Shown here: positions 2,921 through 58,548 of the stretch, in pieces
Numbering within the stretch: the first letter of the stretch is position 1
Layout: every line of letters begins with the position of its first letter
Assembly (NCBI GenBank): GCA_002773615.1
Contig: PFAP01000011.1
Location: forward strand, 8,307-72,306
Direction of reading: 5' to 3'
Source of the DNA: Candidatus Falkowbacteria bacterium CG10_big_fil_rev_8_21_14_0_10_39_11
GTDB lineage: Bacteria; Patescibacteriota; Patescibacteriia; UBA11705
Length of the DNA stretch: 64,000 nt
The notes under the pieces: generated by a model
Told to the model about the DNA's origin: nothing
Database searches by the model: none
Seen by the model: the letters and a program-made list of their open reading frames with translations, nothing else
Program-made: the position numbers and the translations under genes

Positions 2921-4096
2921 TTAAATCAAATTAATCAACAATGATATTCCTGCCGCAAAAATAAAGCTCAAATTAATATCTTGTGTCACCACCAAAAGTC
3001 CCATCATCAAAACCACCATCAATACTCGACCAAAATTCAACGAAATCTCTCGCAGAACATTATACTCATCAACCATATTACCGCTATCAGCCGCTTTTTC
3101 ATATCGTAAAGCATCGTATGGCGTCCGCATCACAATCGCCGCAAAACTATGATAAGTGCTGGCTAAAAAAATATGAAAACCGGTCGCTACAAAAATCTTG
3201 ACCACCCAGCCGAGTGAATACAAAAAGGTACCGTACTTCATTACCTTTCTTTTGTCAAACTTATCGGTATAATCACCAACCACCAATTTGACCACAATAC
3301 TGCCCAAAATAATCACCGATGAAACAATACCCATCGCCGAATAACTTTCATTCATCACCAACCAGATAAATAGCGGCCACAAAACCATTCCAACAAACCC
3401 CTGAGCTCCATCAGCTGCGTATGAAATAAAATTTTTCCGATTTTTTTTGGCAAACGCCTTTTTATATGATTCAAAATAACCAAAAGTAAATTCTTCTTTC
3501 TTTTCCGGTAAAAATACAAGCGGCATAGCAGACACAAGACAAATAAAGCTAGCCGCAATAAACAACATACTAAAACTATAATTTTCCAGTACAAACCCAG
3601 AAATTAACGGCAAAAAAATCGCCACCAAAGAAGCAATGGCCGAAAAAAGCGAAATTTGTTTACCTCGAGTTTTTCGGTTGGTAAATTTAGCAAAATCTGT
3701 ATGAAACTGAATCCAATACAACATCCGACACATATTAATGGCCAAAATAGCAAAAACCAGAAACATACTATCTCCGGTTGAATCAAAAAAATTAAAAAAC
3801 CAATAATACATGGCCACAAAAACTACCGAAATGATCAATGATTTTTTGATCCCAAAGGCTGTCATCATCTTGGCTCCAATTGGTACCAACAAAAACCACA
3901 AACCATAACTGACCAAAAAATACAAAGCGACTAAAGTAAACGACTGCAATCTTTGATACAAAAACACTGGAATAAATAAGCCCAATAGCCCATTCGCAAT
4001 TTGTTGAATCAGTTGATTTGAATATAAGGCAGTCAACGGCCCTGACAATTTTACATTTTTAAAATCATGAATTATCTCCCACTTGTACTCATGCAT
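2921..4096 (-). CDS. Polytopic membrane transporter (MFS-like, ~12 TM)
   Basis: 391 aa, almost entirely hydrophobic helices with short basic loops; no soluble domain. Confidence 0.5.
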   Translation of the reverse strand: MHEYKWEIIHDFKNVKLSGPLTALYSNQLIQQIANGLLGLFIPVFLYQRLQSFTLVALYFLVSYGLWFLLVPIGAKMMTAFGIKKSLIISVVFVAMYYWFFNFFDSTGDSMFLVFAILAINMCRMLYWIQFHTDFAKFTNRKTRGKQISLFSAIASLVAIFLPLISGFVLENYSFSMLFIAASFICLVSAMPLVFLPEKKEEFTFGYFESYKKAFAKKNRKNFISYAADGAQGFVGMVLWPLFIWLVMNESYSAMGIVSSVIILGSIVVKLVVGDYTDKFDKRKVMKYGTFLYSLGWVVKIFVATGFHIFLASTYHSFAAIVMRTPYDALRYEKAADSGNMVDEYNVLREISLNFGRVLMVVLMMGLLVVTQDINLSFIFAAGISLLINLI

Positions 4097-4140
4097 AGTA
4101 ATTTTTATTTTTATTTTATTGTTTTATTACTGTCTTGTTT

Positions 4141-4380
4141 TCCACCATCCTGCTTTCATGTTTCACCTGTCGCCGTAGTTTTAACGTAGGCAGAATGTTC
4201 TCGTGCTTCCCTGTTTTAATTTTTGTCATGCTGAGCCTGCCTGCCGTTAGGCAGGGCTCTCAAAGCATAGTTGCCTAATAGACGGTTACCCTTCGAGTAC
4301 CCTGCCTACTCGCCTCGATTTGCCAATCGGGCGAAGCGGACCGGCAGGCAGGCTCGGGATAACAAGACTAATTGTTCTCA
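4141..4380. repeat. GC-rich intergenic element, copy A; 14-bp perfect inverted arms GAGCCTGCCTGCCG (4243-4256) / CGGCAGGCAGGCTC (4342-4355)
   Basis: Shares TTTTGTCATGCTGA, TTTTAACGTAGGC and the GCCTGCCTGCCGG core with the element at 58345-58500 and with palindromes at 53030-53050 and 54990-55010. Strong compositional contrast with the AT-rich flanks. Confidence 0.55.
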
Positions 4381-4437
4381 TCCTTTTTATTCTATTTCTC
4401 TCCGTCAAAACACGCCTCGGCGCGTTACTTCACTTAT

Positions 4438-5589
4438 TTAACTCCCCAATTTACCAATAATTTTTTCCGCCTGTTCTCCTTCCACCAACTCCGGCCGACA
4501 ATAATCTTGAATCTCAATCGGATAATATTCCACGTCCGTTACTCCTTCTTTATTCAAATGAAGCATCACCCCCAAGCCTTCTCGAGTGTCCTGGCTCCAC
4601 ATTTGATCAAAAACAAAGTTACCCAAACTATAATAAATATATCTATCTTTATAAATTTCCATTTTTTGCACCACGTGAGGATGATGCCCCAAAACCACAT
4701 CAGCGCCACTATCAATCGCCACGTGAGCAAATTCAGTTTGATGCACCGCTGGATCATTGACATACTCAACACCATCATGCATTGAAACAATAATCAAATC
4801 AACTTTTTCTTCATGTGCTGTATTTATATCAGCAATCAATTGCTCAGTATCCATAAGTGCCATTCCAGCTCTAGCAGTCGTCGCTTTATAACTTTCCGGG
4901 CCATAAGCATAGGACAAAAAAGCAATTTTTATTCCCTTGACTTCTTTTATCAATGGATTTACTATTTTATTCAAATTTTCCCCCACCCCAACATAATCAA
5001 GATTATTTTTTCCCAAGTATTCAAATGTTTTAACCAAACCTTCTGAGCCATAATTCATAATATGGTTGTTGGGTAAACTCAAGATATCAAACCCAGCCAA
5101 AGCCAAAGCTTCAGCTGAACGCGGATCCGCCCGAAAAGAAAAAGAACCATCATCAACCAGTGGACCTTCAATTATCGGACTTTCCAGATTGGCCATCGCA
5201 ATATCGGCCGACTGCACCAACTTCCGAGTCGGCTCAAGACAATACATAAAATCATTCTTGGCGAGCATCTTTCGCTCAACCGCTCGACTCATCATAATAT
5301 CGCCTACGGCGAACAAAGTAATTTCTTCTTTTTCTTTTTTTTGAAATAAAGCAATCTGTTCTTGCTGTATTTTTTTCCACTGATCAAAATCCAAATAAAC
5401 CAACTGCTCCGGCAAATAAACTTTTTCAAACACCAAATCATCCTCAGCCCAAAAAAACACCGCCGAAAATGCTCCGGCCGCAATAATGATCGCTAACACA
5501 ATAACTATAATTAAAGTTGTTGATTTCCGCATACTATTTTTTAGCCTCAGTGCGCAAATAAGCTTCAACAAAAGGCATAATTTCACCAT
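4438..5589 (-). CDS. CapA/PgsA-family protein (poly-gamma-glutamate capsule biosynthesis, metallophosphatase fold), N-terminal TM anchor
   Basis: LFAVGDIMMSR ... NLESPI ... LSLPNNHIMNYG ... GHHPHVVQ motifs typical of the PGA_cap family. The true start is probably the internal MRKSTT. Confidence 0.7.
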   Translation of the reverse strand: MVKLCLLLKLICALRLKNSMRKSTTLIIVIVLAIIIAAGAFSAVFFWAEDDLVFEKVYLPEQLVYLDFDQWKKIQQEQIALFQKKEKEEITLFAVGDIMMSRAVERKMLAKNDFMYCLEPTRKLVQSADIAMANLESPIIEGPLVDDGSFSFRADPRSAEALALAGFDILSLPNNHIMNYGSEGLVKTFEYLGKNNLDYVGVGENLNKIVNPLIKEVKGIKIAFLSYAYGPESYKATTARAGMALMDTEQLIADINTAHEEKVDLIIVSMHDGVEYVNDPAVHQTEFAHVAIDSGADVVLGHHPHVVQKMEIYKDRYIYYSLGNFVFDQMWSQDTREGLGVMLHLNKEGVTDVEYYPIEIQDYCRPELVEGEQAEKIIGKLGS

Positions 5590-6727: not shown

Positions 6728-6762
6728 AGCCTATTGATCCTGCGCAAACAAGGAGAAACAAT

Positions 6763-7041
6763 ATGGACACAATTGCAGCTCTATTTTCTCTTGGCACTGT
6801 GGTTTTATTGATTATTTCTCTACAAGCTCGATACAAGAACAATGCAAAACTGATTATTCTCATCATCGCGACGGCAATTCTCTGTGCTGCGGCCAATCTA
6901 TTGGCTTTCATCTTTGTGATTAAAAATGAGAATACTTATTTTTTCAATTTTATTTGTGACTTATTTATTCTCGGTACACAAATTTTACGGTTATATCTAC
7001 TAAAGACCAATCCGCCAACAAGGAGCAACAATGTTCGTTAA
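6763..7041 (+). CDS. Small 3-TM membrane protein (array member 1)
   Basis: 92 aa, three hydrophobic helices, basic C-tail; SD AAGGAGAAAC precedes the ATG. Confidence 0.5.
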   Translation: MDTIAALFSLGTVVLLIISLQARYKNNAKLIILIIATAILCAAANLLAFIFVIKNENTYFFNFICDLFILGTQILRLYLLKTNPPTRSNNVR

Positions 7042-7734: not shown

Positions 7735-8019
7735 ATGAACCTTGATACCTGGCTGGCATTCTGTACGATTTTCATGGGGATCTCCTACGTTATCATCCCA
7801 AATCTCTGTATTAGTTGGCTGAAAATGAAACCCTTGTATTATCAACCGATTCTTATCGCCGTCTATATCATTAACAGCACCATGAATTTTGTAAATTATG
7901 CGTTGCTCGATGATTGGACCTGGTTATTCTTTCCAATCATCTTCTTGCTACTGACAATCTTGTTCATGAATATTGATCGCTTCAAACGCTGGCAAAGACG
8001 TCGAGAATTGCGTCACTAA
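7735..8019 (+). CDS. Small 3-TM membrane protein (array member 4)
   Basis: 94 aa, three helices, very basic C-tail (RFKRWQRRRELRH). Confidence 0.5.
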   Translation: MNLDTWLAFCTIFMGISYVIIPNLCISWLKMKPLYYQPILIAVYIINSTMNFVNYALLDDWTWLFFPIIFLLLTILFMNIDRFKRWQRRRELRH

Positions 8020-8442: not shown

Positions 8443-9150
8443 TTATTGTGGCCAATTGCGACCTGGATCAGCTTTGAATGACTGTCTGATTTGGGCAATC
8501 TCACTAAACCGATCATGCATTTCATCATTCACCGTATACTGTCCTTGTTCAAAAGTATAAACCCACCCCCAAATATCATTTCTAGCCACAAGCATAGATG
8601 GTGCTCTTTCCGGGTTCAATTCTACATATTTATTCCACTCTTCCAGACTCCAAACGGTCACCGCAAACAAATCGTCCTGAGCCGGAAAACCAAAATAAAA
8701 AGTCTTTATTGACACTGGTCCGCCATAATCATTACTCGATTCTCTAACTTCAAAATCAGCCCAACTTGCTGGGAAAGTCATCGCAAATTCATAATCTCGA
8801 TTGTAATATTGAACCGTTTGCTCGATAGGGCGTTCATTTTCATCTCCGGTACCCATCATTTCATCCATCATACTGTCAATTTCATCAACCTTCAAATCTG
8901 TAAGACTGCCATCTTCTTCTTGAATTCTATCAGTATTATTCTCTTGATATTCGTTAATTTTACTTTCCAAATTTTTGATCGTGATTTGCTGTTCAGTTAC
9001 GATCGGTTCAAAAATCACATAGGCCAAAAGCCAAACCAAAAGCCCAACAAAAACCGCCGTTACAAACACAGCAATCATCACAGTCTGAATCAATCGATGA
9101 TCTTTTTTTATCTCTTCTTTTTTCTCCGGTGATAATATTTGTTCATCCAT
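8443..9150 (-). CDS. Hypothetical membrane-anchored protein with an acidic extracytoplasmic domain
   Basis: N-terminal TM (VMIAVFVTAVFVGLLVWLLAYVIF) then a 180-aa soluble region; no recognisable motif. Confidence 0.4.
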   Translation of the reverse strand: MDEQILSPEKKEEIKKDHRLIQTVMIAVFVTAVFVGLLVWLLAYVIFEPIVTEQQITIKNLESKINEYQENNTDRIQEEDGSLTDLKVDEIDSMMDEMMGTGDENERPIEQTVQYYNRDYEFAMTFPASWADFEVRESSNDYGGPVSIKTFYFGFPAQDDLFAVTVWSLEEWNKYVELNPERAPSMLVARNDIWGWVYTFEQGQYTVNDEMHDRFSEIAQIRQSFKADPGRNWPQ

Positions 9151-15502: not shown

Positions 15503-15845
15503 CCGCTTCCTCCCGCTGGGTATTAGCAAAAATTATCATATTTTTATAAATATGTCAATCAAAAAAACCAGCGAATCACTCCGCTGATTTTTTATTTTTT
15601 GTAAAATACTTTCACTACGAACGACTTGTCAGTTTCCCGTTTATTTTGTAAAAATCACAAACACTATTTGCCTAGCTTTCGTAGTTACAGTTAACCTCTT
15701 TTGTAAAAGCCAATTCATCAAGCAGTATAACTTCCGCCGCGCCCCTGCCTACCGGACATTCGGCGAACTCAATCGAGCCACAGGCAAGTAATTTTCGTCG
15801 TATCAGTATATTCGTAATCTAGTATTCGTACATTTGTAACAATAA

Positions 15846-21013: not shown

Positions 21014-24000
21014 TTATTGAATTTCAAAATCCGTACTTGGTTTATTTCTAATTGAATAATAATTAAAGGTCTCAGCCTCTGTCCTATAAGAAATTCTAGA
21101 TCGCTTAAAGTCCCGGTTAAGATAATCATACAAATAACTATACAAATCAATCGGTGAAGATGTTGGAATCTGTATATCAACAATCAGACTATCAGAATTA
21201 TAACACGTATTTGGATCACTACCTCTAGCACAAACTGAACACAATTGATTGCCATTATCTTCAAAACATTGATGAGCTGGGATCAAACACTTCTTACCAT
21301 TATCTCCACAGGCCTCTCCGGTGAATGAGCTATTGGAACTTGGTTCATAACGAGCAATCTTATTGATCGGATCAACCGGTAATCTTGTCCCCAAATCATT
21401 GGCTAGGGTTGACTGCCAACTGGGCCAGGTAGAAGATGCAACATTCCGAATATACGAACCACTTTCAACGGTCGGTAAAGTCGTGTAACGATCATAGTAC
21501 GCCTGTAAAGATCTCTTTATATCCGTAATATCATTTATTCTCTGAATATCCCTTCTGATTGCAAATTGTACATCAGAATCTGTCACATTAATATTAAACA
21601 TCATCGAATCAATCATCTGAGCAAACATATCAATCGTACGACTATTGGCACCCAAATTATAGCCCAAAACAAAGATATAATTCCGCATCTCGCCACCAGT
21701 CAAATTACCAGCCGAGATATATACCGTATTTCCATCCTTAATCCCCTTATAACATACTTCTTGCCCAAATTTTGTATCAAGGCCACAATACACATTCAAA
21801 TCAGAACTGGATTGTCCAGCTTGAGGCACCTGATTTTTATACCATTCACGAACAGACAAATTATCAGGATTATCATAAATTCGCAGTGAAATCACATCAT
21901 CAACAAAGTCATTTGTATTCACCTCATTCACAATATCATCTGATCTGATCATCAAATATTGTTTTTGTAATGTGTCAACATCAGCTCCCAACTGTGACTC
22001 TACTACCCGAAGTAGTGGTAAATCATCCATTTTATTATTTACTTGTCCATTATCACGACAATATCGCAAATGAATATTTCGACCATCATTTCCATCATCC
22101 CACCCAATACTGGCACTATCCGCTGGCACTCTCCAGGGATTTTCACAAACATATGCACTGACTTGGCCTGATCCGACTAAAGTCGCTCCAATTTCACCAA
22201 AATAATCATCATCTATAATTGCTGCTTCAGCTGAAATTTCCGTATTTCCATTTTTATTATTAGCCATAGCCGCATCCCAAGAACCTGGAAGCTCTGTAAT
22301 ATCAACAATATCCCTATCTCCACTTTCCCAACTTGACCAATCCCAATCATACCGGCCAGCAAAAGGCTGAATTATTGTATTGCCCGACTTGGCCAGATGT
22401 GCAACTTCCCAAACCTCATCCCGCTCAGAAACTTGTTTCATCGCTGGAGAAATACCAACAGAATCAAAATGGCAATAATCTGATCCAACATTAAACCTGA
22501 AATTTTGATCTGGAATCAACAATTGACAATTATTTTCAATATTTTTAAGTCGGATCTCATAATGAGCAACCTTAAGAACGTCATTGGTTGTTATTTCAAT
22601 TTGACTAACATTTCTACCTCCCACATCCAGTACTCTTGATGTAATACTATAATTATCTGACTCTTCGAGACACCATTCAGCCGCCCGAGCGTCACGTCCG
22701 AATAATTTATTTAAATAATTCCAAATTTTCATCCCAACCTGAACTGGAGCACTACCACAACTATCAGCCTGATATCGCAATTCAATCAATTGATTCAAAT
22801 TTACTCCCGGTTCATGAAGCTGCTCCATCAATAAATCATACTGAACCACGATCACCGCATTCGGACATGTTTGAGATCCATCTTCACTGGTCATATCTAT
22901 CAAAGAAGGACTAATCAACTCTGCTCTTGCCGGATTGTTCGGATCACAAGATGGTGGTGGCGGTCCACCCAAACCAGAATAAACGTATGTAAGCAAACTA
23001 TCTTCAGACAAACTCTCTCCCACATCACCACTTTCTTCTAAATATGAAACCGTATTTTCCAACGTACCACGAATATTGACCGTTTGTCTGGTCGCACCAT
23101 CTGGCAAATAACCCAAAACCGTCACCAATGAATATGGTGCCCCATAAGACTCAAAACCGCCCCCAGACTGATCCAATTCACAAACCGGATCTTCGCCTGG
23201 CTCCACTTGTCCATTGGCACAAAAGGCAGCATTAGCCACGTTTGAGCCTCCATTCAAGCAACCATTGGTACACCAATCCGGAATTCTACAAACACAACTA
23301 TCCGTTCCGAATTCACAGACCTGTCCTTCATTATCAGTACAAACCGCTTCACACTCTTCAGTATAATTATTATAAGTTTCTAATTGTCCATTACCACAAC
23401 AATTTTCCTGATTATCTTCATTACAACCATCAAAATTTTTAAGTACACATTTATTTGAACAAAATTGGTCTTCATATGATTGGCAAACACAATTTTGATC
23501 TCCTGGCTGACAAGAGGCAAAAGAAATATTACCGTCAGAATTACGTTGCAAACTACCGTCCGCCGCTCGCACTGGAACTCGACAATTAACCGCCACCGGT
23601 TCACACTCTTCACCATTTTCGACCTGTCCATTACCACAAATCGATCCTATATATTCCGAACTTCCTTTATATAAACAATTATTATCTAGTCCGAACTGAC
23701 GATTTATTGCCGCTGAACCAAAATCATCATCTTCACCCAACTCCACTTTTCCATTACCACATTCAAAACCGGCTGAATTTGATCCTTCATTCAAACATTG
23801 TTTACTGCAACCATCTTGATTATTTCCATTACCATCATCACAATCTTCGCCCGGATCGACAATCTTATTACCACAACAAGCAATTTCATTGCCGGCAAAG
23901 CAAATCTCTGTCCCCGCTCTGAGACATTGATCAGTACACGCCGCGCCACCATCACACTCTTCACCAGATTCAACAACATTATTGCCACAAACGGCCTGAT

Positions 24001-27000
24001 AACGAACAGAACCTTCACTTAGACAATTAGACGTACAAGAAACGGCTCGCTGTGGAGAGTATAATGTCTTTAACATTGCAATCAATTTATTATCTCGCTC
24101 CGCCCTAGCGTCAACCCCGACAAAATTTTGCGAATTCACATCCGTATAATATTGTACTTCACCCGTTGTCTCTTCCCAATCCCAATCATACTGTCTGGCA
24201 CTGAGGCGTTGACCTCCAGAACTACAAAGATCCGGTTCAGAATACGGCACAGCACTATAAAGTATCTGCTCACCAGCTACCGTCGACAAATATTCTCCCG
24301 GACTAACCGTCACTCGATCAGGCCGACAAAAACCTCCATCTTCTCGAGTTTTGAAGACAAAACTAAACGAATCAAAGGTCGATGCGCTGTTAACATTTCG
24401 ATCAGTCAAAACACAACTTTGACAATTATCCGGGAAAGTACAGCTACAACCATCATCTCCATATTCACAACTCTGACGCTCTACCAAACTGCAAACATCT
24501 TTACAAACCAAATCCTTTTCGCTTGGACATTCAGCGCCTGTCGAAGCCAAAGGCACACAGGTACAAGCCGGAGCACTTTCCTTGCATTGAGTTTCTGTTC
24601 CAGCACAATAAGTCAATTTAATACACTCTCCTTTATCTGGATCCGCATCAAAACAGGTTACATCTGGAACAAATTGAAACTTACCAGATTCTCGACACGT
24701 ACAATCAGGTCCACTTTCTGTACAAGATTTTTGAGGGTCTTCTTCACAGGATCTTTGTGGTTGACAATCACAGCCAGCGTTATTATCTGTACAATATTCA
24801 GTAGTATTTTCTTGACAAACTTTTGGTTCAACACAAGTACAATCCAGAGAGTCAGCCGTACATTTTTGAGTTACATCTTCCAAGCAATATGAAGCACACT
24901 GCGGAGAATCACACTCTCTCGGTTCTCCACACTGACATGATGAAGACAATATATTTGGTTTATTTTTATTATCATTAAAATAATCATTACACACTTCGAG
25001 TGCAGAAACCCCTACACTACCAACGAAATCCACCTTCCCGGCTTTTGAACAACTTTCAACCTCACATTGCTCTTGCAATTGAGCCGACCCTAAATAAGTA
25101 TCCAAATTACCATCACCACAACAACCGGTAACGCCATCTTTACAAGCTGTAAAACCAACCAATCGACAATCATTGGAACAAAATTTGTTATTAGCCAGAG
25201 AACAGACACAATTATCCTCGCCTGAAATACATGTTTCGTTTGTTTTTTCATTCAAACATATCGCTTCGCATTGCTCTCCAGCATCAGATTCAATCACACC
25301 ATTACCACAAGTCCCAATTTGTGATCGAGTATTAAAATTCAAGCTGGTCAATTCTTTTGCACTGACATTTGTTACATCACCACGAATAACCAATCGATAA
25401 TATTTGGCCGGATCCAACACAGGATTAGGGTAAATACGCAATCGATTACAGACTTCACCATAATCAGCCACCATAGATACACCGGTTGTTGAGTCACAAT
25501 CGATTTCTCCGGGCTGGAAGTTTGCCAACTTATTTTCTTTCCCCGCAATCGACAAGCAATCACGACTTTCACACTCATACAAGCCAACAGATCCTGGATT
25601 ATTCTTCAAATAATCAGCGGGAATATAACTATTAAACATAGCCCCAAGCTCAGCGTTTACACAAGCGCCTTCACAATCCGGCCAATAATCAATTACTTTG
25701 GGGTCTGCCAATGAGATCGACAATCTAGCCTCATCCTGAAATGATTGAGCCCCAACCAAACCAGAAACTTGAATTTCTCCATCATCTCCCGGCGGTGTTT
25801 CAATCACCTCAGCATCTGGATTAACAACAAAATAGGCTGTATCTTTTCTAGATCCAGACACAAACAATCGATTGATTCTATCACCATATCGAGCCACCAG
25901 CCAATTCCAATTTTCATCAGAAACATCTATAATTCCACAATTATTCGCCTGACCGGAGACCATATATTTTTCTTGATCAACCACACTATTCAAGACACCT
26001 TCACTTGGATTCACCACCACAGAATCAATTGTACAGTCTGTGGCCGCTGTTTTAAAATTCCAAACATAATCATTTAATAATTCTTGAACATCATCGCCAG
26101 GGTCAGGCGCATTTCGGACACCAGCTTTCACAATCACCCGATACCAGGTATTCGGTACCAGATCATAATTAAGTAAATTGACTTGAGTCACTACATTATT
26201 ATCATAAGTTGAAGTTAAAACTTCATTCAATAAAATCCGACCGCTTGCATCACGTCCAGTAGCCACAAAATTATAATCTGTAGTCAAACAGTTACTACTA
26301 TCACAAAGCTGCAAATTACATTCACTTCCAGACTCACTACAACGTCTGATTTCCACTCGATCACCATCAATAAACGACTCTGAATCCATTTCCATATTAA
26401 AAGTAAAGCTGGCCAACCCGTTTGGACAAGCCGTCTGAGTATTGTTACGTGGAGATGGTGATTCATCAAAACCGCCAAGACTACATTCTCGATTAATCAC
26501 TTTAGGAATTTTAGGAATATTACCAGTACTAAAATACCAACCGTACTCACACGTAGTTGCTTGAGCTTCACACAGTTCAGCCGCGCTACAATAAGAATTT
26601 TGACAACAAACCTCACCCGAGCCACAACTATCAACCGTACATCGGCCGACATTAAATTGAACCGGATTACTATCGATACCACCTTGTTCAATCACCAACT
26701 CGCCACTTCTAGCATCCGGCGGAACAGATACCCCAGAAATTTGCGTACTGGTCCATTCAGCAGATTGTAAATTAAATCCCTCAACTATTGATGGCACACC
26801 AGGCGCAGCCGAAGCAAATTTGACCTTACCGGGTGTATTGCCAAATCCAACACCCTGAATAGTAATACTCGTCCCCGGAGGTCCATTGTCTGGAGTTATT
26901 GAACAAATACCAGGAGTCAATGCAAGATTATTATCAACTGAATAGGGTACCGAAACACTACCCTCGCTGTTTGCAATTTCTAAATCATAAGACCCTGTAA

Positions 27001-29080
27001 CCAAATCTGGAATGGTTACTTGAATACTGGTATTTGACCAATTATTAGCACAAGAAGTTAAAGCCGGAGTCCGAACGTTATCTCGAATAAATGTCACCGT
27101 ACCACTAGCACCAAAATTACTACCCTTAATCGTAATAATTTGTCCCTTAGGCGCAGTTTGCGGCAAAACTGACTGAATCACAATCGAACTATCACTTTCC
27201 CCGACCACAAAATTCACTGGATTGCTATAAAAATCATCCCGACCAACTTGAACGGTTTTGTTTCCTGACGATATAAACGGCACTTGAACTTCACGTATCA
27301 CATCATCTGACCATATTCCAGTCAGCAATGCATCACCATTAAAGTAAATACTACCATCTGCTCCAAAATGTCTTCCAGTCAAAAGAAGACGATCTCCGGG
27401 AGCTCCATTATTTTCTCGAGTTTCTTCATTCACCACCGAACACAAAGCGATTCTATTATTTCCACTTTCAGTAATCACCAAATCATTCTTCCAACCGGGT
27501 GCATTTGGATCAGCCGTATTGTGCCAATTACCTCTATTATTAAAAATTTGTATTGGACCAGTAGCAACATTTGGTACAGACACCACCACCTGTCGATCAC
27601 TCCAACTATCACGACCACAAACCGGAGCCGCTTCAACCCCATTGATTAAAACTTTTGCTTCTTGAGCAAAAACCCCAAAGTTTTTTCCATAAATAGTGAT
27701 AAAACCACTCGTCGGTGATTCAGCCGGCACTACATTGGTAATCAAAGGATATGGCCACAACGAACAGACAGACGAACACTGCTCAACTCCATCAACCGTT
27801 GAACAGTTACTCGGAGTACAAGTATAAGTACAATCATCCCCCGTACATTCAGAACAATTATCAACCTCACACTCAGGCAAAGAACAATCAAACTCACCAC
27901 CATCATTAAAACAACTATTGGAAGCCACCAAATATCGTCCAGCTGCGGTTGATTCATTATTACTAACATCACTCACCTTCACGGTTCCAGTGTGCCAACC
28001 CAAATCAAAACCGATAGTGGATGCATTCAAAACTGAACTATATGATAATGGATTTTCATCTTCAAAAACCACCTGCTGACACAAAACCCCTTGTCCGGTT
28101 TGAGCTGTCGGACAAAGTTGCAAGCTAGCCAAACCACTGGCGTCGGCCGCTGTTATCGGAAAATCCTCTTGGGCTCCAACTCGAACTTGCTGTGGGCTGG
28201 GAATAACCGATACTGTTGGCGCCAACAAATCACAACTATTTGTAGTCGTAAATTCTACTTGTCGACAATAACCCTGCAACCTATTTGGACATGCCACCAC
28301 ACTACCATTTTGATCTTGTAATTCTAATACTTTAATTCGATATGTTTTTTCTCCCTGAAAACAACTTGTCGCTTCACATCCAACTGGACATTCACCATTT
28401 GAAACAAAAGTCACCTTTCTATCACTTAAATCATAAGAACCCACCACCTCAACTTCTGACTCTACGTCACCGTCTTTTACAACCTCATACACTTTAATGT
28501 TATCTTTGGCATTTTGATATTCATTAGTCGGTAATGGCGTTCGACCATTCGGGAACGTAACCTGGACCACTGCATTAACCGGAGTATTAGCTCCACGAGG
28601 AGCAATACCAACGGAAAACCCTGTCACACCACCACCGCCACCGCCACCATCACCACCACCACCACCGCCACCCTCGGTGGTTGAAACCACTCCAGTCGCT
28701 TCACTAAGTCGATTAATTACATAACTGGTAATAGAAAATGCTGACATAATAATCACCATGCCAATAATACCATTGATAATCCATTTTTTAGCCTTCTCAA
28801 CTGACGTTTCAGCTCCACCACTAGTCATGTACAAAAATCCACCGTACAACACAATAGCCAAAGAAACCACTCCTAAAAATCCCAAAAATATTCTCAAAAT
28901 TCTACCGATAATTATTCTCGGATCCTCATTACCCAAAACGGTCGCCGACCCAACAGCCTCAAGCCCCACCCCAACATCATTTGACTGTTGAGCATGCAAT
29001 AATTCTGGAAGGACAAAAAGACCACCCATCACAATGAAGAGCACAATCAACACTCCAATTATTTTATTTTTATGTTTCAT
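21014..29080 (-). CDS. Giant (2688 aa) cell-surface protein: N-terminal T4SS-pilin-like (VirB2/TrbC-like) membrane domain, Gly-rich linker, IPT/TIG-like repeats, multiple Myxococcus-type Cys-rich repeats
   Basis: N-terminus LGNEDPRIIIGRILRIFLGFLGVVSLAIVLYGGFLYMTSGGAETSVEKAKKWIINGIIGMVIIMSAFSITSYVINRL; GGGGGGGDGGGGGGG linker. IPT/TIG-like strands (ITIKGSNFGASGTVTF, ITIQGVGFGNTPGKVKF). CGNGxxExGEECDxG repeats (CGNGVIESDAGEQCE, CGNGQVENGEECE, CGNKIVDPGEDCDDGNGNNQDGCSKQC). Confidence 0.7.
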   Translation of the reverse strand: MKHKNKIIGVLIVLFIVMGGLFVLPELLHAQQSNDVGVGLEAVGSATVLGNEDPRIIIGRILRIFLGFLGVVSLAIVLYGGFLYMTSGGAETSVEKAKKWIINGIIGMVIIMSAFSITSYVINRLSEATGVVSTTEGGGGGGGDGGGGGGGVTGFSVGIAPRGANTPVNAVVQVTFPNGRTPLPTNEYQNAKDNIKVYEVVKDGDVESEVEVVGSYDLSDRKVTFVSNGECPVGCEATSCFQGEKTYRIKVLELQDQNGSVVACPNRLQGYCRQVEFTTTNSCDLLAPTVSVIPSPQQVRVGAQEDFPITAADASGLASLQLCPTAQTGQGVLCQQVVFEDENPLSYSSVLNASTIGFDLGWHTGTVKVSDVSNNESTAAGRYLVASNSCFNDGGEFDCSLPECEVDNCSECTGDDCTYTCTPSNCSTVDGVEQCSSVCSLWPYPLITNVVPAESPTSGFITIYGKNFGVFAQEAKVLINGVEAAPVCGRDSWSDRQVVVSVPNVATGPIQIFNNRGNWHNTADPNAPGWKNDLVITESGNNRIALCSVVNEETRENNGAPGDRLLLTGRHFGADGSIYFNGDALLTGIWSDDVIREVQVPFISSGNKTVQVGRDDFYSNPVNFVVGESDSSIVIQSVLPQTAPKGQIITIKGSNFGASGTVTFIRDNVRTPALTSCANNWSNTSIQVTIPDLVTGSYDLEIANSEGSVSVPYSVDNNLALTPGICSITPDNGPPGTSITIQGVGFGNTPGKVKFASAAPGVPSIVEGFNLQSAEWTSTQISGVSVPPDARSGELVIEQGGIDSNPVQFNVGRCTVDSCGSGEVCCQNSYCSAAELCEAQATTCEYGWYFSTGNIPKIPKVINRECSLGGFDESPSPRNNTQTACPNGLASFTFNMEMDSESFIDGDRVEIRRCSESGSECNLQLCDSSNCLTTDYNFVATGRDASGRILLNEVLTSTYDNNVVTQVNLLNYDLVPNTWYRVIVKAGVRNAPDPGDDVQELLNDYVWNFKTAATDCTIDSVVVNPSEGVLNSVVDQEKYMVSGQANNCGIIDVSDENWNWLVARYGDRINRLFVSGSRKDTAYFVVNPDAEVIETPPGDDGEIQVSGLVGAQSFQDEARLSISLADPKVIDYWPDCEGACVNAELGAMFNSYIPADYLKNNPGSVGLYECESRDCLSIAGKENKLANFQPGEIDCDSTTGVSMVADYGEVCNRLRIYPNPVLDPAKYYRLVIRGDVTNVSAKELTSLNFNTRSQIGTCGNGVIESDAGEQCEAICLNEKTNETCISGEDNCVCSLANNKFCSNDCRLVGFTACKDGVTGCCGDGNLDTYLGSAQLQEQCEVESCSKAGKVDFVGSVGVSALEVCNDYFNDNKNKPNILSSSCQCGEPRECDSPQCASYCLEDVTQKCTADSLDCTCVEPKVCQENTTEYCTDNNAGCDCQPQRSCEEDPQKSCTESGPDCTCRESGKFQFVPDVTCFDADPDKGECIKLTYCAGTETQCKESAPACTCVPLASTGAECPSEKDLVCKDVCSLVERQSCEYGDDGCSCTFPDNCQSCVLTDRNVNSASTFDSFSFVFKTREDGGFCRPDRVTVSPGEYLSTVAGEQILYSAVPYSEPDLCSSGGQRLSARQYDWDWEETTGEVQYYTDVNSQNFVGVDARAERDNKLIAMLKTLYSPQRAVSCTSNCLSEGSVRYQAVCGNNVVESGEECDGGAACTDQCLRAGTEICFAGNEIACCGNKIVDPGEDCDDGNGNNQDGCSKQCLNEGSNSAGFECGNGKVELGEDDDFGSAAINRQFGLDNNCLYKGSSEYIGSICGNGQVENGEECEPVAVNCRVPVRAADGSLQRNSDGNISFASCQPGDQNCVCQSYEDQFCSNKCVLKNFDGCNEDNQENCCGNGQLETYNNYTEECEAVCTDNEGQVCEFGTDSCVCRIPDWCTNGCLNGGSNVANAAFCANGQVEPGEDPVCELDQSGGGFESYGAPYSLVTVLGYLPDGATRQTVNIRGTLENTVSYLEESGDVGESLSEDSLLTYVYSGLGGPPPPSCDPNNPARAELISPSLIDMTSEDGSQTCPNAVIVVQYDLLMEQLHEPGVNLNQLIELRYQADSCGSAPVQVGMKIWNYLNKLFGRDARAAEWCLEESDNYSITSRVLDVGGRNVSQIEITTNDVLKVAHYEIRLKNIENNCQLLIPDQNFRFNVGSDYCHFDSVGISPAMKQVSERDEVWEVAHLAKSGNTIIQPFAGRYDWDWSSWESGDRDIVDITELPGSWDAAMANNKNGNTEISAEAAIIDDDYFGEIGATLVGSGQVSAYVCENPWRVPADSASIGWDDGNDGRNIHLRYCRDNGQVNNKMDDLPLLRVVESQLGADVDTLQKQYLMIRSDDIVNEVNTNDFVDDVISLRIYDNPDNLSVREWYKNQVPQAGQSSSDLNVYCGLDTKFGQEVCYKGIKDGNTVYISAGNLTGGEMRNYIFVLGYNLGANSRTIDMFAQMIDSMMFNINVTDSDVQFAIRRDIQRINDITDIKRSLQAYYDRYTTLPTVESGSYIRNVASSTWPSWQSTLANDLGTRLPVDPINKIARYEPSSNSSFTGEACGDNGKKCLIPAHQCFEDNGNQLCSVCARGSDPNTCYNSDSLIVDIQIPTSSPIDLYSYLYDYLNRDFKRSRISYRTEAETFNYYSIRNKPSTDFEIQ

Positions 29081-29114
29081 TTTTATATTTTAACTCAACT
29101 CTTGAGACTATAAT

Positions 29115-31223
29115 CTAATAAGGACACATTGCTCCTGTTTGAACCTGCATACCACCAACTCCAGCATCATCTACCGTACCACAACAAGCTCGACCAGGCA
29201 CCAATGGATCACAAGCCGGTCCCTTACAAGGATTAAAGCAATTCCCCTGCATATCCTGGACTCCTGAAGTAATTTTAGGAAAGAAAAATGGCACATCAAG
29301 CGGATTTTTTGCCAACGAAAATGGTCCATGATTTATCATCACTTTTCTATCATTTGTCAAACAAAACTTCGAACCATCAGGTGATGTTCCTGGGTCACAA
29401 AACAAACTACCCGTGTACCAACCACTCCACATATCCGAGACTATTATCATATTAGAATTCGTTGTAGTTGCTGGATCTATCGCTTCACTATAAGTCGCCG
29501 ACACCACACTATCCGGCCTCACACCATCACTTTTATCAGCTGCATTCGCTGGTGTGACGGCTGTAATATTTGGCGGAATCAAATCCAATTGAGCTGAAGT
29601 CAAAAACGTCCAATCAAAACTATCGATTGCCTGAGTTTCTGTTTGCCCATTTCCGCGACCAATACGTCCGTTGGTATCCAAACCATTCAAAGCTGAATCC
29701 ACAATACCACCAACCGGGAATCGAACTGAAGTTGGACCAGCCGGTCCGTTTGGATTGGCCGCATCATAATTCACCAAGTTACTTTTTGGCACAGACCGCA
29801 CCAAGGTTTTTATCTTGCTATTCGCTGGCAAACAAGTAACAATATCACCACAAGAATTAAACAAATCAGCTCCGGTACCACAGTTACCATTGGCCTTGAA
29901 GATTAATGATCTATACTGGTTTATTCCAGCCACCACATCACCCATGATTACCGAGCCATCAGCATCATTAGTCACCAAGAACTCGGCATTACCATAATCA
30001 CCAGAATTAGTTGATATCATTTTCAAAAATATCGGTGGAATCACCGCCTCACTAAAATCAACTCGAATACGACTATTTCTCCAATGAGTTTCAGCATTAG
30101 CCGCCCCCACCTCGAATTCAACTGGTTGCCCACTCGAATCAAGCGTCACCGGATAAACACCAGTCACAAATGGCGGAGTAGTATCGATCACCGTATTTGT
30201 AGTAAAATACCAGGGATACTTCGGAGATTGTTGGCCGGTAAATACACCTGTATTTGTTTGATACTTTCTAATATTATTTGTTAACAATGAAAAATAAGTC
30301 ACATCTTCAGCAATTCCGCCCAAATGTTCTGTAGTACTATTCCCATATGGATTAACTACAATGGTTTTGAAATCAGGCGTGATATATACCTCTCCAGGAA
30401 CAAAATCAAACGGGGCAGCAGGCTCATCACCTCGCCATTCATTACAAACAGATTTATTACCCCTTTGAGCTGGATCATAACTCTGCGGAGTCACCACACC
30501 TTCAGGATAAATAGATTCACAAGCTTCATATATTTTGATCGATTCAGTATCCAAATCTCCAGTACATAAACAATCACTATCCGGTTTTACATCCGAACAA
30601 TCACCGCCAGCCGCATCTTGACAAATAAAGTTACCATTAGCCGCGATCACGCTTGACGGAACAATCGGTTCTTTAAAAGTCACCATAATCACAGTATTCC
30701 GTGGGACAGTCGAAGCAATGGCCGGATAATGGTCCTGAATTACTCGACCCAAAATACCAGAACTCAAACCTGGTGAAGTATATTCAGACTGAGAACCTCC
30801 ACCCGTTCCGCCACCAATAATAGCTTGTAATCGACTGATAATAAAACTGGTAATGGCAAAAGCTGACATCATAATCACCAAACCAATCGTAGCGTTGATA
30901 ATTGTTTTTTTTGCTTTAGTCGTCTTTGATTCATCACCACCGCTGGTCATGTACAAAAATCCAGCGTAAATCATTAGCGAGACAAAAATCGCACCAACAA
31001 ACCCAAAGAATATCCGGATTATTCTGGCAATAATAATTCTAGGGTCTTCATTTCCCAAGCCAGTAGCACCGCCGACAGCGTCAGTACCGTTAATTACTCC
31101 CGGAGCTTGCGCCGCAACCTGAAAAACACTCAGCAGCAAAATCGCAGTTAGTATAAAGGCAAAAAAAATCGATAAATAAGCTACTCGATTTGTTCGTTTT
31201 ATATATTTAAAATTCAAAAACAT
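29115..31223 (-). CDS. 702-aa surface protein with the same N-terminal T4SS-pilin-like domain followed by a Gly-rich linker and a large extracellular region
   Basis: LGNEDPRIIIARIIRIFFGFVGAIFVSLMIYAGFLYMTSGGDESKTTKAKKTIINATIGLVIMMSAFAITSFIISRL aligns motif-for-motif with the giant protein N-terminus. Confidence 0.65.
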   Translation of the reverse strand: MFLNFKYIKRTNRVAYLSIFFAFILTAILLLSVFQVAAQAPGVINGTDAVGGATGLGNEDPRIIIARIIRIFFGFVGAIFVSLMIYAGFLYMTSGGDESKTTKAKKTIINATIGLVIMMSAFAITSFIISRLQAIIGGGTGGGSQSEYTSPGLSSGILGRVIQDHYPAIASTVPRNTVIMVTFKEPIVPSSVIAANGNFICQDAAGGDCSDVKPDSDCLCTGDLDTESIKIYEACESIYPEGVVTPQSYDPAQRGNKSVCNEWRGDEPAAPFDFVPGEVYITPDFKTIVVNPYGNSTTEHLGGIAEDVTYFSLLTNNIRKYQTNTGVFTGQQSPKYPWYFTTNTVIDTTPPFVTGVYPVTLDSSGQPVEFEVGAANAETHWRNSRIRVDFSEAVIPPIFLKMISTNSGDYGNAEFLVTNDADGSVIMGDVVAGINQYRSLIFKANGNCGTGADLFNSCGDIVTCLPANSKIKTLVRSVPKSNLVNYDAANPNGPAGPTSVRFPVGGIVDSALNGLDTNGRIGRGNGQTETQAIDSFDWTFLTSAQLDLIPPNITAVTPANAADKSDGVRPDSVVSATYSEAIDPATTTNSNMIIVSDMWSGWYTGSLFCDPGTSPDGSKFCLTNDRKVMINHGPFSLAKNPLDVPFFFPKITSGVQDMQGNCFNPCKGPACDPLVPGRACCGTVDDAGVGGMQVQTGAMCPY

Positions 31224-37958: not shown

Positions 37959-38270
37959 TTAACCTCTTATAAAAAACATCCACTCCGGATCCAAAAAGCC
38001 AACAAAGACCGAGCATCCAGATCGATTCACAATCCACGCTTCTTTATCCCGACCACGACCCTTCTTATAATATTCTCGCACTTCGCTTCTACCATCACCA
38101 ACAACCTGCACATCAATCCCACAACACCAAGACTCCATCGCGTCATGCTCTTCATCTGAAATTCGTTGCTCCAACCACTCTTTATGCTTTGGCAAAACAT
38201 CTATATCACAACACCGAATCCCTAGTACTCGAGCAATGCTCTGAGCCAACCCACGGTTTTTGGTTCCCAC
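37959..38270 (-). CDS. Hypothetical Cys-containing protein, cassette 2 (begins inside repeat copy 2)
   Basis: MGTKNRGLAQSIARVLGIRCCDIDVLPKHKEWL (repeat-encoded), then a unique tail ...SWCCGIDVQVVGDGRSEV...; followed by a terminator hairpin ATAAGAGGT-TAAATG-ACCTCTTAT. Confidence 0.4.
   Translation of the reverse strand: MGTKNRGLAQSIARVLGIRCCDIDVLPKHKEWLEQRISDEEHDAMESWCCGIDVQVVGDGRSEVREYYKKGRGRDKEAWIVNRSGCSVFVGFLDPEWMFFIRG
38171..38255. repeat. 85-bp direct repeat, copy 2 (84/85 identical to 38711-38795)
   Basis: CCAACCACTCTTTATGCTTTGGCAAAACATCTATATCACAACACCGAATCCCTAGTACTCGAGCAATGCT[C/A]TGAGCCAACCCACG. Confidence 0.85.
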
Positions 38271-38596
38271 ACTTTATCAGAACCAGGGTAATAAAACTTA
38301 CCAAAATAGTAAAGACTGCTATCATCTCTCTCATGCATATGAATCAGAACATAATCAACATCGGACTCATCATCACCACCATGAATCTTATCCATAATCA
38401 AATCATGAAGCTCATCATGCTCGACCTCATCAAATTCACGACCATTCACCTCTTTCAATGAACGACTGGGCTTGTAAAAAAAAGTATCTTCTTCATTCAA
38501 ACCCTGCCACCAACGAATCAAATCAACAATCGTTCCGTCAAAGTGCCAAATCCAACTCCGGTACCCATATTCTTCGTCCACCAGCACTGTAATCAT
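38222..38596 (-). CDS. Strongly acidic small protein (124 aa; start reassigned to the ATG with the AGGAGG SD)
   Basis: MITVLVDEEYGYRSWIWHFDGT...HDELHDLIMDKIHGGDDESDVDYVLIHMHERDDSS...; TAGGAGGTGTC precedes the ATG; the 3' end overlaps repeat copy 2 in another frame. Confidence 0.5.
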   Translation of the reverse strand: MITVLVDEEYGYRSWIWHFDGTIVDLIRWWQGLNEEDTFFYKPSRSLKEVNGREFDEVEHDELHDLIMDKIHGGDDESDVDYVLIHMHERDDSSLYYFGKFYYPGSDKVWEPKTVGWLRALLEY

Positions 38597-38627
38597 GACA
38601 CCTCCTAATTTTGTTCTTGTTGAAGAT

Positions 38628-38945
38628 TCAATCGGCATAAATCGTGACCCAAAACAGATCAAATTGATCAGTGGCTTCAAACTTTTGCTTCGCCACCAAG
38701 ATAGATTGTCCCAACCACTCTTTATGCTTTGGCAAAACATCTATATCACAACACCGAATCCCTAGTACTCGAGCAATGCTATGAGCCAACCCACGATCCT
38801 TCAAAGCCACACACAACTGCAAATTATCCAGATACTTTCGCACCTGATTAGCTTCAATTCGAGTAAAGGATAGATGCCCCTTCCACCTACACTTAGGCAT
38901 ACAACCAAAAAAGTCATCGGTTACCCAGATTGACGGCTTTAGCAT
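38628..38945 (-). CDS. Hypothetical Cys-containing protein, cassette 1 (N-terminal region + repeat-encoded segment + short tail)
   Basis: MLKPSIWVTDDFFGCMPKCRWKGHLSFTRIEANQVRKYLDNLQLCVALKD + RGLAHSIARVLGIRCCDIDVLPKHKEWL + GQSILVAKQKFEATDQFDLFWVTIYAD. Confidence 0.4.
   Translation of the reverse strand: MLKPSIWVTDDFFGCMPKCRWKGHLSFTRIEANQVRKYLDNLQLCVALKDRGLAHSIARVLGIRCCDIDVLPKHKEWLGQSILVAKQKFEATDQFDLFWVTIYAD
38711..38795. repeat. 85-bp direct repeat, copy 1
   Basis: See copy 2; 540 bp centre-to-centre spacing. Confidence 0.85.
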
Positions 38946-53029: not shown

Positions 53030-53050
53030 TCCTTGCCTGCCGGCAGGCAG
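53030..53050. repeat. GC-rich perfect palindrome CCTTGCCTGCCGGCAGGCAGG (repeat family copy C), between parB stop and the lipoprotein start
   Basis: 14-bp perfect palindrome GCCTGCCGGCAGGC with no loop. Confidence 0.6.
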
Positions 53051-53067
53051 GTCTTAATTATCTTACT

Positions 53068-54940: not shown

Positions 54941-55011
54941 TTGCCGCGGTGGCGGACTTGCCTCCCGTATGGGAGGACTGGTAGACCTGTCTACCGGCAG
55001 GCAGGCGCGCT
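54941..55011 (+). repeat. GC-rich element copy D (hairpins CCTCCC-GTAT-GGGAGG and GGTAGAC-CTG-TCTACC, then CCGGCAGGCAGGCGCGC)
   Basis: Contains the family core CCGGCAGGCAGG; lies in the 5' leader of the GIY-YIG ORF. Confidence 0.5.
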
Positions 55012-55023
55012 AAGACACACTAT

Positions 55024-55248
55024 ATGATGTATTATGTATATGCATTAAGCAGTAAAATTAAACTGTATATCTATGTTGGTCTAACCAGTAACTTATTAAG
55101 AAGAATTAACCAATATAATTCAGGAAAAGAAAAAAACACTAGACCATTCAAACCATTTGTATTAATATACCAAAAAGAATTCGACACTAGACCAGATGCT
55201 CGCAAAATGAAAAATATCTTAAGGGAGGATCGGGGAAAGAATTTCTAA
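55024..55248 (+). CDS. Stand-alone GIY-YIG nuclease domain protein (YhbQ/UPF0213-like)
   Basis: YVYALSSKIKLYIYVGLTSNLLRRINQYNSG matches the GIY-(10)-YIG ... R ... N pattern. Confidence 0.75.
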   Translation: MMYYVYALSSKIKLYIYVGLTSNLLRRINQYNSGKEKNTRPFKPFVLIYQKEFDTRPDARKMKNILREDRGKNF

Positions 55249-55264: not shown

Positions 55265-55351
55265 AGCCGAAGTGGCGGAACTGGTAGACGCGCTGGACTC
55301 AAAATCCAGTGATGGCGACATCGTGAGAGTTCGAGTCTCTCCTTCGGCACC
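55265..55351 (+). tRNA. tRNA-Leu (anticodon CAA), long variable arm, encoded CCA
   Basis: GCCGAAG acceptor, anticodon loop CTCAAAA, 87 nt, TPsiC loop GTTCGAGTC, 3' CTTCGGCACCA. Confidence 0.85.
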
Positions 55352-55447
55352 AAATTTCAATACAAAGATACAAATGCATCACTTTTAATTTAATCCTTGC
55401 CAAATTATTAATTATCATGTATGATATTAGCGATGTCAAAAATTAAC

Positions 55448-55521: not shown

Positions 55522-55641
55522 AATCATAAAATTCTAAATTCTAAGCTCTAAACTCTAAAAATATCTCCCAGTTTTAGTCTTTAGAATTTCGAGTTTAGTC
55601 TTTTTTTGATGATTAATAGTTCAATAGTGATTCAATTTTAT

Positions 55642-58500: not shown

Positions 58501-58548
58501 ACAAAATAGTTTTTATTACCTCTAACACTTCTATCACTTTTAATCCTT

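Follow-up and report, generated by a model that had tools for sequence, protein, structure and literature searches.

The DNA analysed here, referred to as the window, is a stretch of 64,000 nucleotides from contig PFAP01000011.1 of Candidatus Falkowbacteria bacterium CG10_big_fil_rev_8_21_14_0_10_39_11. Dispersed over it is a family of GC-rich repeats, the common core of which is a perfect 20-bp palindrome, CCTGCCTGCCGGCAGGCAGG, termed PAL below. The G+C content of the window is about 39%, and its GC skew is strongly negative and constant throughout. The FolC, ParB and NrdD proteins encoded in it are identical to database entries of Candidatus Falkowbacteria bacterium CG10_big_fil_rev_8_21_14 (Patescibacteria). 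Two further Falkowbacteria genomes, both syntenic with the window, were used for comparison. The closest relative compared is the metagenome-assembled genome (MAG) GCA_003518055.1 / Ga0103682_10000007 (ParB 87% and NrdD 91% identical); the second genome, RIFOXYD2_FULL_35_9 (locus L241, NrdD 85% identical), served as the outgroup.

That the window holds a family of GC-rich motifs had been proposed in an earlier note made from the sequence alone, and the family is real. Allowing up to two mismatches, the core GCCTGCCTGCCGG is matched 10 times in the 64-kb window against 0.20 expected, and none of 100 shuffles (0/100) reached this number. The matches lie at 4235-4247, 4341-4353, 15743-15755, 53031-53052, 54994-55006 and 58463-58479. 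Six full or partial copies of PAL are present in the window, which thus contains a repeated palindromic unit of 20 bp, within the 20-40 bp of repetitive extragenic palindromic (REP) sequences in the general sense.

Copies of the palindrome in the window

The copy first described, copy A, is a nested structure with the following parts:

4166 to 4193: CCTGTC-GCCGTAGTTTTAACGTAGGCAG block, PAL-like arm fragments flanking a conserved TTTTAACGTAG core
4223 to 4365: composite element A, made of the inverted hairpin units U1 and U2; its outer ends are 24-nt arms
4224 to 4268, + strand: unit U1, with TGTC tag, stem ATGCT/AGCAT, 11-nt loop and PAL after GAG
4236 to 4255: PAL in the U1 loop, CCTGCCTGCCGTTAGGCAGG, with two central mismatches
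4286 to 4364, - strand: unit U2, with TGTT tag, stem ATCCC/GGGTA and PAL in the loop after GAG
4309 to 4340: third-level insert in the U2 PAL, hairpin TCGCC-CGATT/AATCG-GGCGA

Copy A had been reported to have perfect 14-nt inverted arms at 4243-4256 and 4342-4355, about 85-90 nt apart. Such arms exist and the right one is correctly placed, but the left one occupies 4233-4246, 10 nt away from the reported position, so that 95 nt separate the arms. The arms extend further, to 24 nt with 88% complementarity (4223-4246 and 4342-4365). Instead of being a single inverted repeat with a spacer in its middle, copy A is composed of two hairpin units in facing orientation. In both of them a TGTC or TGTT tag is followed by a stem whose first bases are AT, the loop has 11 nt and conforms to GAGNNNNTCRA, and PAL is inserted behind its GAG. 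In U2, this PAL is in turn interrupted after CCGG by 32 nt of inserted sequence that contain a third hairpin. The parts fold as DNA on their own, namely U1 at -12.1 kcal/mol (z = -3.3), U2 at -21.1 kcal/mol (z = -3.7) and the third-level insert at -9.0 kcal/mol (z = -3.2). The whole element folds into a three-way junction with z-scores of -6.7 (+ strand) and -9.8 (- strand), and a strong fold on both strands is expected of DNA palindromes.

The outgroup has a U1-like unit of the form TGTCATGCTGAA-(PAL-like)-TTTCAGCAT at the position corresponding to copy A, some 130 nt upstream of the MFS orthologue. The copy A site has no clean empty counterpart in the closest relative, where the MFS gene is missing, and a metagenome scan with the PGA_cap protein found no close orthologue (best 61%). 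The block at 4166 to 4193 has a counterpart, CCTGCCTTGCCGAAGTTTTAACGTAGGCAGG, in the related metagenome contig L122.

The other copies, apart from the one in the tRNA-Leu remnant described in the next section, are listed below:

15743 to 15755: degenerate PAL half-site; the spacer after ftsZ in which it lies exceeds that of both relatives by about 100-120 nt
42546 to 42572, + strand: hairpin-unit remnant in folC, TTTTTGTCATCCTGAGCCTGTCAAAAGG, in frame and encoding FCHPEPVKR
53032 to 53051: PAL after parB, one mismatch, within the 83 nt from the parB stop to the next gene start
58349 to 58503: composite element B, with CGTC/TGTC-tagged outer arms CGTCATACTGAA / TTCAGATTGACA enclosing three hairpins
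58379 to 58391: second TTTTAACGTAGGC block, in the loop of a CCGC/GCGG hairpin in copy B
58463 to 58479: truncated PAL, GCCTGCCTGCCGGCAGG, one of the three hairpins of copy B, inside a CTGAA^CTTGATTCAG-type loop

Copy B folds with z = -3.7 on both strands. The arrangement of its PAL-bearing loop recurs in a Flavobacteriaceae contig (L090) as ATACTGAAACAAG-PAL-TTCAGCACAGG (29 nt, 96.6%). Of the two blocks that copies A and B had been said to have in common, TTTTAACGTAGGC is shared exactly (4179-4191 and 58379-58391), whereas 'TTTTGTCATGCTGA' is only approximate, its counterpart in copy B reading TTTTCGTCATACTGA. The shared 13-mer by itself is not above chance in 64 kb; a 22-nt version of this block, 95% identical, is found in L122.

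The palindromes described earlier as collapsed correspond to 53032-53051, with one mismatch to the 20-mer, and to 54986-55005, with two. The degenerate copy likewise holds up as the half-site at 15743-15755, for which no significant fold was obtained. A 21-nt PAL variant, CCTGCCTACCGGACAGGCAGG, lies in frame in an apparent coding sequence of contig L095 (7480-7530), adding PAYRTGR between …VMLD and RDLSELYGVE…, and the 15743 fragment of the window matches the left part of this variant at 16/16 positions.

All copies had been placed between genes or in leaders, and this is true of all of them except the one in folC, which is intragenic. Its in-frame motif (42546-42565) matches 4220-4239, at the 5' end of U1, at 19/20 positions. 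The suspected insertion in the protein was also found: the loop exceeds that of homologues of 71% and 68% identity by 5-6 residues and that of T. maritima FolC by about 8-9, and its length also varies among other homologues. A palindromic repeat lying in frame in a tolerant protein loop is the behaviour known from Rickettsia palindromic elements (RPE), though the sequence is not alike. Judging from its sequence, the insert in folC belongs, in decayed form, to the tagged-hairpin family, whose intact consensus GTCATCCTGAGC…GAGCYTGTCGA… is found with covarying stems in 10 other loci of diverse taxa, including L022, L033, L036, L077, L126 and L165. The hairpins of this family have the conserved 11-nt loop GAGCTTGTCGA and the stems CCT/AGG, TCC/GGA, GCCT/AGGC and CCCT/AGGG, and are resembled by U1, U2 and the folC insert of the window. 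Three FolC homologues from other Patescibacteria (P0005, P0009 and P0041; alignment columns 311-341) carry independent, longer inserts at the same loop, for instance RLDSRSNKLPLVDARRANTLPYKTNKH. From such alignments, this FolC loop seems to be a hotspot of in-frame insertions derived from repeats.

Two copies differ from the closest relative by presence or absence, as the corresponding junctions of the relative are tight and empty. Copy B lies in the gap that separates the small-multidrug-export and glycosyltransferase genes, 207 nt in the window as against 19 nt in the relative. Between the stop of parB and the start codon that comes next there are 83 nt, including PAL, in the window and 3 nt in the relative. 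Insertion in the lineage of the window is the parsimonious explanation at both junctions. No PAL-like site was detected in the approximately 43 kb of the closest relative that were examined. In the outgroup there are three such sites, and for two of these the corresponding spacers of the window are without one. Downstream of ftsZ, a conserved stem-plus-T-run terminator is located within 30-85 nt of the stop in both relatives (L240 and L241), and the spacer of the window, about 230 nt long, includes the 15743 fragment. This terminator is conserved separately from the palindromic elements. Its classical form, AAAAATCAGCG…CGCTGGTTTTT, is kept in the three Falkowbacteria (window 15540-15575, L240 ~6745-6790, L241 ~7775-7815).

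Precise insertion and the tRNA-Leu/GIY-YIG module

In several genomes PAL is situated in a partial tRNA copy beside an intact copy of the same tRNA, which gives natural pairs of filled and empty sites. Deleting the 20-mer restored an ungapped tRNA match in five genomes, with 30/30 (WWE3), 46/46, 30/31 (Saccharibacteria), 25/27 (Chitinophagales) and 42/45 identical positions, and the junction of the restored match lay exactly at the position of PAL. The insertion was therefore precise, with no duplication of the target and no loss of target bases. PAL behaves as a self-contained insertion module.

The window has a site of this kind, in which a gene for a GIY-YIG nuclease separates a tRNA remnant from an intact tRNA:

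54943 to 55012, + strand: remnant of the resident tRNA-Leu (29 nt from its 5' end) with two palindromic inserts of 20 nt each
54957 to 54976: D-loop insert of the remnant, 20 nt, CTTGCCTCCCGTATGGGAGG, hairpin CCTCCC/GGGAGG
54986 to 55005: PAL copy in the D-arm of the remnant, CCTGTCTACCGGCAGGCAGG, two mismatches
55024 to 55248, + strand: GIY-YIG nuclease gene, 74 aa, between remnant and intact tRNA-Leu (Pfam PF01541, E = 8.8e-14)
55266 to 55352, + strand: intact tRNA-Leu(CAA), with variant acceptor stem GCCGAAG/CTTCGGC

The decomposition of the remnant was checked by direct string removal, since a MAFFT alignment misplaced the two inserts. Without them, the 70-nt segment is identical to the tRNA-Leu(CAA) of the closest relative at 29/29 positions, as against 27/29 for the intact tRNA-Leu of the window. 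PAL stands in the D-arm of the remnant between GGYAGA and CGCGC, the same position as in a Giovannonibacteria locus (L100). The acceptor stem differs on both strands, being GCCGAAG/CTTCGGC in the intact tRNA-Leu of the window and GCCGCGG/CCGCGGC in that of the relative. A TTGACA/TATAAT promoter is common to both, upstream of the remnant in the window and of the tRNA in the relative, whose tRNA-Leu is not preceded by a GIY-YIG gene. The GIY-YIG gene of the relative (97 aa as annotated) is located between two tRNA-Met genes (L237 5644-6148), and the counterpart of this site in the window (55447-55718) is an empty spacer of 120 nt, so that presence and absence of the gene are reciprocal. A catalytic domain and presence or absence between close relatives are features of a GIY-YIG homing cassette, and both are found here, the cleavage activity being predicted only. 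On this comparison, a cassette of the GIY-YIG gene and a variant tRNA-Leu would have displaced the resident tRNA-Leu and would now be read from the promoter of the latter.

The same order, a remnant with PAL followed by GIY-YIG and an intact tRNA, also occurs in WWE3, Giovannonibacteria, Chitinophagales and a 'Gammaproteobacteria' MAG, and decayed versions exist. One idea is that the palindrome in the remnant confers immunity to renewed cleavage.

Further observations concern the surroundings of such genes. Downstream of the tRNA-Leu of the relative (L237 ~8740-8871) a tRNA 3' end occurs in duplicated form (GAGTCTCTCCCG…GCGGCACCA, with the same trailer CCTTAAAA behind it); a GC-rich insert of 29 nt interrupts it and a CCCTGAGCGAAACGTAGTGGAGTCGAAGGG hairpin precedes it. 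This duplication may be the trace of an older replacement event. In a Saccharibacteria contig (L094 4630-5230), a GIY-YIG gene of the same family lies between 23S rRNA-like flanks, like a homing-endonuclease insertion in an rRNA gene. In a Thermodesulfobacteriota MAG (L061 3540-4290), PAL and then a GIY-YIG domain are in frame in an open reading frame (ORF) of 714 residues (…PACRQAGKTP…WWVYVIECENGSFYKGF…).

Distribution across bacteria and viruses

The exact 20-mer was sought in one genome per GTDB species, and at least 120 stretches were returned. Exact PAL is accordingly present in at least 120 species genomes, in unrelated flanks and under at least 10 phylum-level labels. About one match in 596 Gb would be expected by chance under uniform base composition. 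That a discrete 20-bp unit is shared exactly across phyla is not visible from the window alone. Among the matches listed, about 36 loci belong to Patescibacteria of many classes, with a complete, curated WWE3 genome among them, and about 38 to Bacteroidota. Cultured Bacteroidota with PAL are Winogradskyella, Flagellimonas, Longitalea, Flavivirga, Aquiflexum, Aestuariivivens and Agriterribacter. Further labels among the matches listed are Omnitrophota, Planctomycetota, Verrucomicrobia, Gamma- and Delta-proteobacteria, Bdellovibrionales, Thermodesulfovibrionales, Chloroflexi and Elusimicrobia. The G+C content of the loci ranges from 30% to 72%. In IMG/VR, 35 viral stretches contain exact PAL, with up to six copies on one contig of 29.5 kb, whereas two control palindromes designed in the same way, CCAGCCAGCCGGCTGGCTGG and CCTCCCTCCCGGGAGGGAGG, had 0 matches.

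PAL is bounded sharply at 20 nt, 76 of the 121 sites having no further complementarity (76/121). The flanks of different sites are unrelated to each other, for which reason a conserved carrier or master copy was rejected, and among the genes close to 125 PAL sites no family, of transposases or otherwise, was seen repeatedly. At loci with a G+C content of at most 47%, 12% of the sites fall inside predicted genes as compared with 75% of random positions; PAL is thus predominantly extragenic, as REPs in general are. Most copies are positioned between co-directional genes, at a median of 91 nt past the upstream stop. PAL lands mostly in intergenic DNA and also in hairpin loops, in other copies of itself (PAL nested within PAL in L019 and L043) and in dead tRNA fragments. 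The preference for hairpin loops is a tendency at most and anecdotal.

A second palindrome, TCCGCCAGCTGGCGGA, is exactly conserved beside PAL copies in the 'Gammaproteobacteria' MAG L012 (~3367-3382) and the Saccharibacteria MAG L017 (~195-210), and PAL may be one of several cross-phylum palindromes. In a GC-rich viral contig (L202 10480-11400), PAL tips long intergenic hairpins with stems of short tandem heptamers, GGTGAGA / CTAACCT; repeat-flanked PALs of this kind also occur in L051, L059 and L102.

In literature text, the PAL sequence and related hairpin sequences match only unrelated primers, and no description of PAL was found in the literature on Patescibacteria repeats or on GIY-YIG genes associated with tRNA.

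Nature and proposed movement of the palindromes

The repeats of the window are best read, with a probability of roughly 0.7, as DNA-level, REP-like selfish palindromes and not as genes, PAL being their discrete common core. PAL has entered TGTC-tagged hairpin units, giving rise to the nested composites A and B, and is found besides as the lone copy after parB, the copy in the tRNA-Leu remnant and decayed fragments. The best reading of the element is a non-autonomous mobile palindrome. The earlier comparison with REPs or bacterial interspersed mosaic elements (BIME) stands in broad terms, the repeats being short, intergenic, clustered and nested DNA palindromes with one in-frame genic copy, all of them traits described for REPs (PMC3733652). 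As to the mechanism, copies might be made or moved as a hairpin or a short duplex by an enzyme supplied in trans, which is the favoured possibility. New genomes would receive PAL from phages and from small homing cassettes, the GIY-YIG/tRNA module being an example, and effects on the host, for example those of RNA or DNA hairpins between genes, would be secondary.

Several points weigh against this reading. No transposase or other dedicated enzyme was found, and ten unassigned ORFs of the window gave none. There is no fixed target motif, including a tetranucleotide of the IS200/IS605 type; the sole signal is that, adjacent to PAL, A is enriched (42% vs 23%) and T depleted. Inverted-repeat flanks were present at only 9% of the PAL sites compared with 2% of controls. 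The idea that PAL rides on TGTCAT-tagged hairpins was rejected, as TGTCAT or CGTCAT occurs within 40 nt of 3% of the sites and of 2.9% of controls. Furthermore, the extra DNA of the window at the parB and copy B junctions is longer than the palindromic element, so that the events there were not simple 20-bp insertions. Both junctions were compared without the outgroup, and deletion in the relative may account for them instead. Regarding the distribution, many phylum labels depend on the binning of MAGs, and the public scans covered exact matches, the species count being a lower bound.

The main alternative to movement as a hairpin or duplex, itself unlikely, is that PAL was never transposed and represents filler DNA from the repair of breaks, especially breaks made by GIY-YIG homing endonucleases, which persists where it destroyed the cleavage site. 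It would account for the PAL or other palindrome in the tRNA remnant of nearly every intact module of remnant, GIY-YIG gene and tRNA (window, L038, L100, L107, L119, L084, L078 and L040). In L078, a PAL-like segment of 19 nt replaces 19 nt of the tRNA, and such a combination of deletion and insertion is typical of break repair; AT-rich filler accompanies PAL at the parB junction, and 6/10 of the GIY-YIG ORFs in PAL loci lie at most 160 nt from a PAL. However, about 94% of the PAL sites have no GIY-YIG gene nearby, the five exact insertions without target loss would be unusual for end joining, and the source of a constant 20-mer in so many phyla is left unexplained by this model. Improbable to a greater degree is a role of the hairpins as host-selected transcription terminators or mRNA-stabilising 3' hairpins that insulate adjacent genes. 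Their stable stems and their usual place between co-directional genes and shortly after a stop agree with such a role, which has been proposed for REPs (PMC3733652). Promoter and terminator scans at copy A, copy B and the parB PAL gave no site on the transcribed (-) strand, though, and the stem-plus-T-run terminators of this lineage are conserved separately beside the elements. Moreover, 3 and 19 nt without any hairpin suffice at the same junctions in the closest relative, and selection of this kind leaves unexplained both the exact 20-mer across phyla and the copies in tRNA remnants and genes.

Two further readings, related to proposals of the earlier note, fared worse. A family of small structured RNA genes or cis-regulatory leaders in copies A and B is very improbable, despite the fold of copy A on the transcribed strand (-86.6 kcal/mol, z = -9.8) and the location of both copies upstream of genes. 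An Rfam 15 scan of the whole window at gathering thresholds detected only three tRNAs and nothing at the elements, and a permissive scan of 4090-4440 yielded best E-values of 1.3 and 2.4. The opposite strand folds nearly as well, the copies have only short modules in common (the 20-nt unit) and not an architecture, and no promoter-like site for a separate transcript was seen in the scans at the elements. In addition, copy B and the parB copy are absent from the tight orthologous junctions of the closest relative. Least probable of all are classical MITEs (miniature transposable elements with inverted repeats), that is, deletion derivatives of an insertion sequence with shared terminal inverted repeats, moved by its transposase with target-site duplication. 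The 24-nt terminal repeats of copy A, the inverted ends of about 13 nt in copy B and the length of about 145-160 nt of each would suit them. Yet the terminal repeats of copy A resolve into two independent facing hairpin units, no flanking duplication exists at A, at B or at the five PAL insertions, no full-length second copy was present in the window or in 2.1 Mb of compared loci, and neither a related transposase, among 20 window proteins scanned, nor an insertion sequence was detected.

Returning to REP-like mobile palindromes, several known systems are comparable. REPs have been sorted into the GTAG- and CGTC-tagged superfamilies (Di Nocera et al. 2013, PMC3733652). The CGTC superfamily includes Neisseria dRS3 and Rickettsia RPE-4/RPE-6 and has no known dedicated transposase (PMC3733652). 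Its members have a CGTC or TGTC tag and stems starting with AT, form inverted dimers, and occur in genes and inside other palindromes; in families 1-4 the stem is 8-9 bp, the loop 4-5 nt and the tail short and CCA-like (PMC3733652). The host units of the window (U1, U2, B and folC) are similar in carrying TGTC, CGTC or TGTT followed by AT and in occurring as inverted dimers between genes, with one in-frame genic copy. They differ in having stems of about 5 bp and loops of 11 nt or longer, of the type GAGCYTGTCGA or GAACTTGTTTC. A search of the window for canonical CGTC-type units (tag and stem of at least 6 bp) gave 4 hits as against 7-14 in shuffles, none of them at the elements. PAL itself is unlike both superfamilies, being a perfect palindrome without a tag or a conserved flank. 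REPs and REPINs moved by REP-associated tyrosine transposases (RAYT, IS200-like Y1), and also BIMEs, share with PAL the short extragenic palindromes, the clustered or mosaic arrangement and the absence of target duplication. PAL, however, lacks the GTAG tag and consists of one 20-bp unit instead of a doublet; no RAYT (Y1 transposase) gene was seen among 20 window proteins scanned. While REP families are specific to a species or genus, PAL is identical across phyla.

Small dispersed repeats SDR4-6 of 21-27 nt, reportedly described in Nostoc and related cyanobacteria by Elhai et al. in 2008 (Genome Research; cited in PMC5861425), are said to be nested, to occur in hairpin contexts and to be present or absent at orthologous sites. 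PAL resembles these functional analogues in looking mobile, in its scale of about 20-27 nt and in being too small to encode anything; it differs in that it is a perfect palindrome spread over many phyla and viral contigs, the cyanobacterial repeats reportedly being confined to cyanobacteria and having other sequences. The GC clusters or PstI palindromes of fungal mitochondria, another functional analogue, are GC-rich palindromes scattered in AT-rich DNA, often near tRNA and homing-endonuclease genes, and are considered mobile. Unlike PAL, they are organellar, have other sequences and in some cases show short target duplications. Related cases are given in PMC7218506. Free-standing GIY-YIG homing endonucleases are known from tRNA gene clusters, for instance SegB of phage T4 (PMC2988022, PMC13096335). 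The cassette of the window is like them a small GIY-YIG gene in a tRNA operon, present or absent between close relatives, with replacement of the neighbouring tRNA sequence. In contrast to the SegB type, it is chromosomal (Patescibacteria), leaves a 5' tRNA remnant and appears to supply a complete variant tRNA, its nuclease activity being a prediction.

Short palindromic repeats are usually described species by species and their movement is largely obscure; PAL offers a sharply defined substrate for studying how they spread, and the tRNA remnants and intact copies lying side by side are natural 'before and after' pairs for a minimal DNA insertion. PAL also explains recurrent spurious peptides such as PACRQAG and in-frame protein inserts in metagenomes, which matters for annotation. 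The apparent displacement of a resident tRNA-Leu by a GIY-YIG gene with a variant copy suggests that essential tRNA genes of organisms with tiny genomes are subject to a selfish cycle of gene replacement. It may be speculated, as a tentative extension on the doubtful side, that PAL is the smallest known mobile element, a non-coding palindrome of 20 bp copied or moved precisely and without duplication in many phyla and phages. Its spread would then be tied to breaks or hairpins, including those of GIY-YIG cassettes that overwrite a resident tRNA with a variant and leave a remnant plugged by PAL.

Other repeats of the window were recorded as well. A direct repeat of 107 nt with 90% identity has copies at 38166-38272 and 38706-38812, spaced by 540 nt, and overlaps an unassigned 172-aa ORF (38222-38740) without a Pfam match. 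A 2688-aa ORF (21014-31223) contains internal repeats with a period of about 114 nt at 23184-23991. Its 5' end resembles the neighbouring 702-aa ORF (28709-28961 vs 30831-31083, 70-77%), and its orthologue in the relatives has TIG and pilin-like domains.

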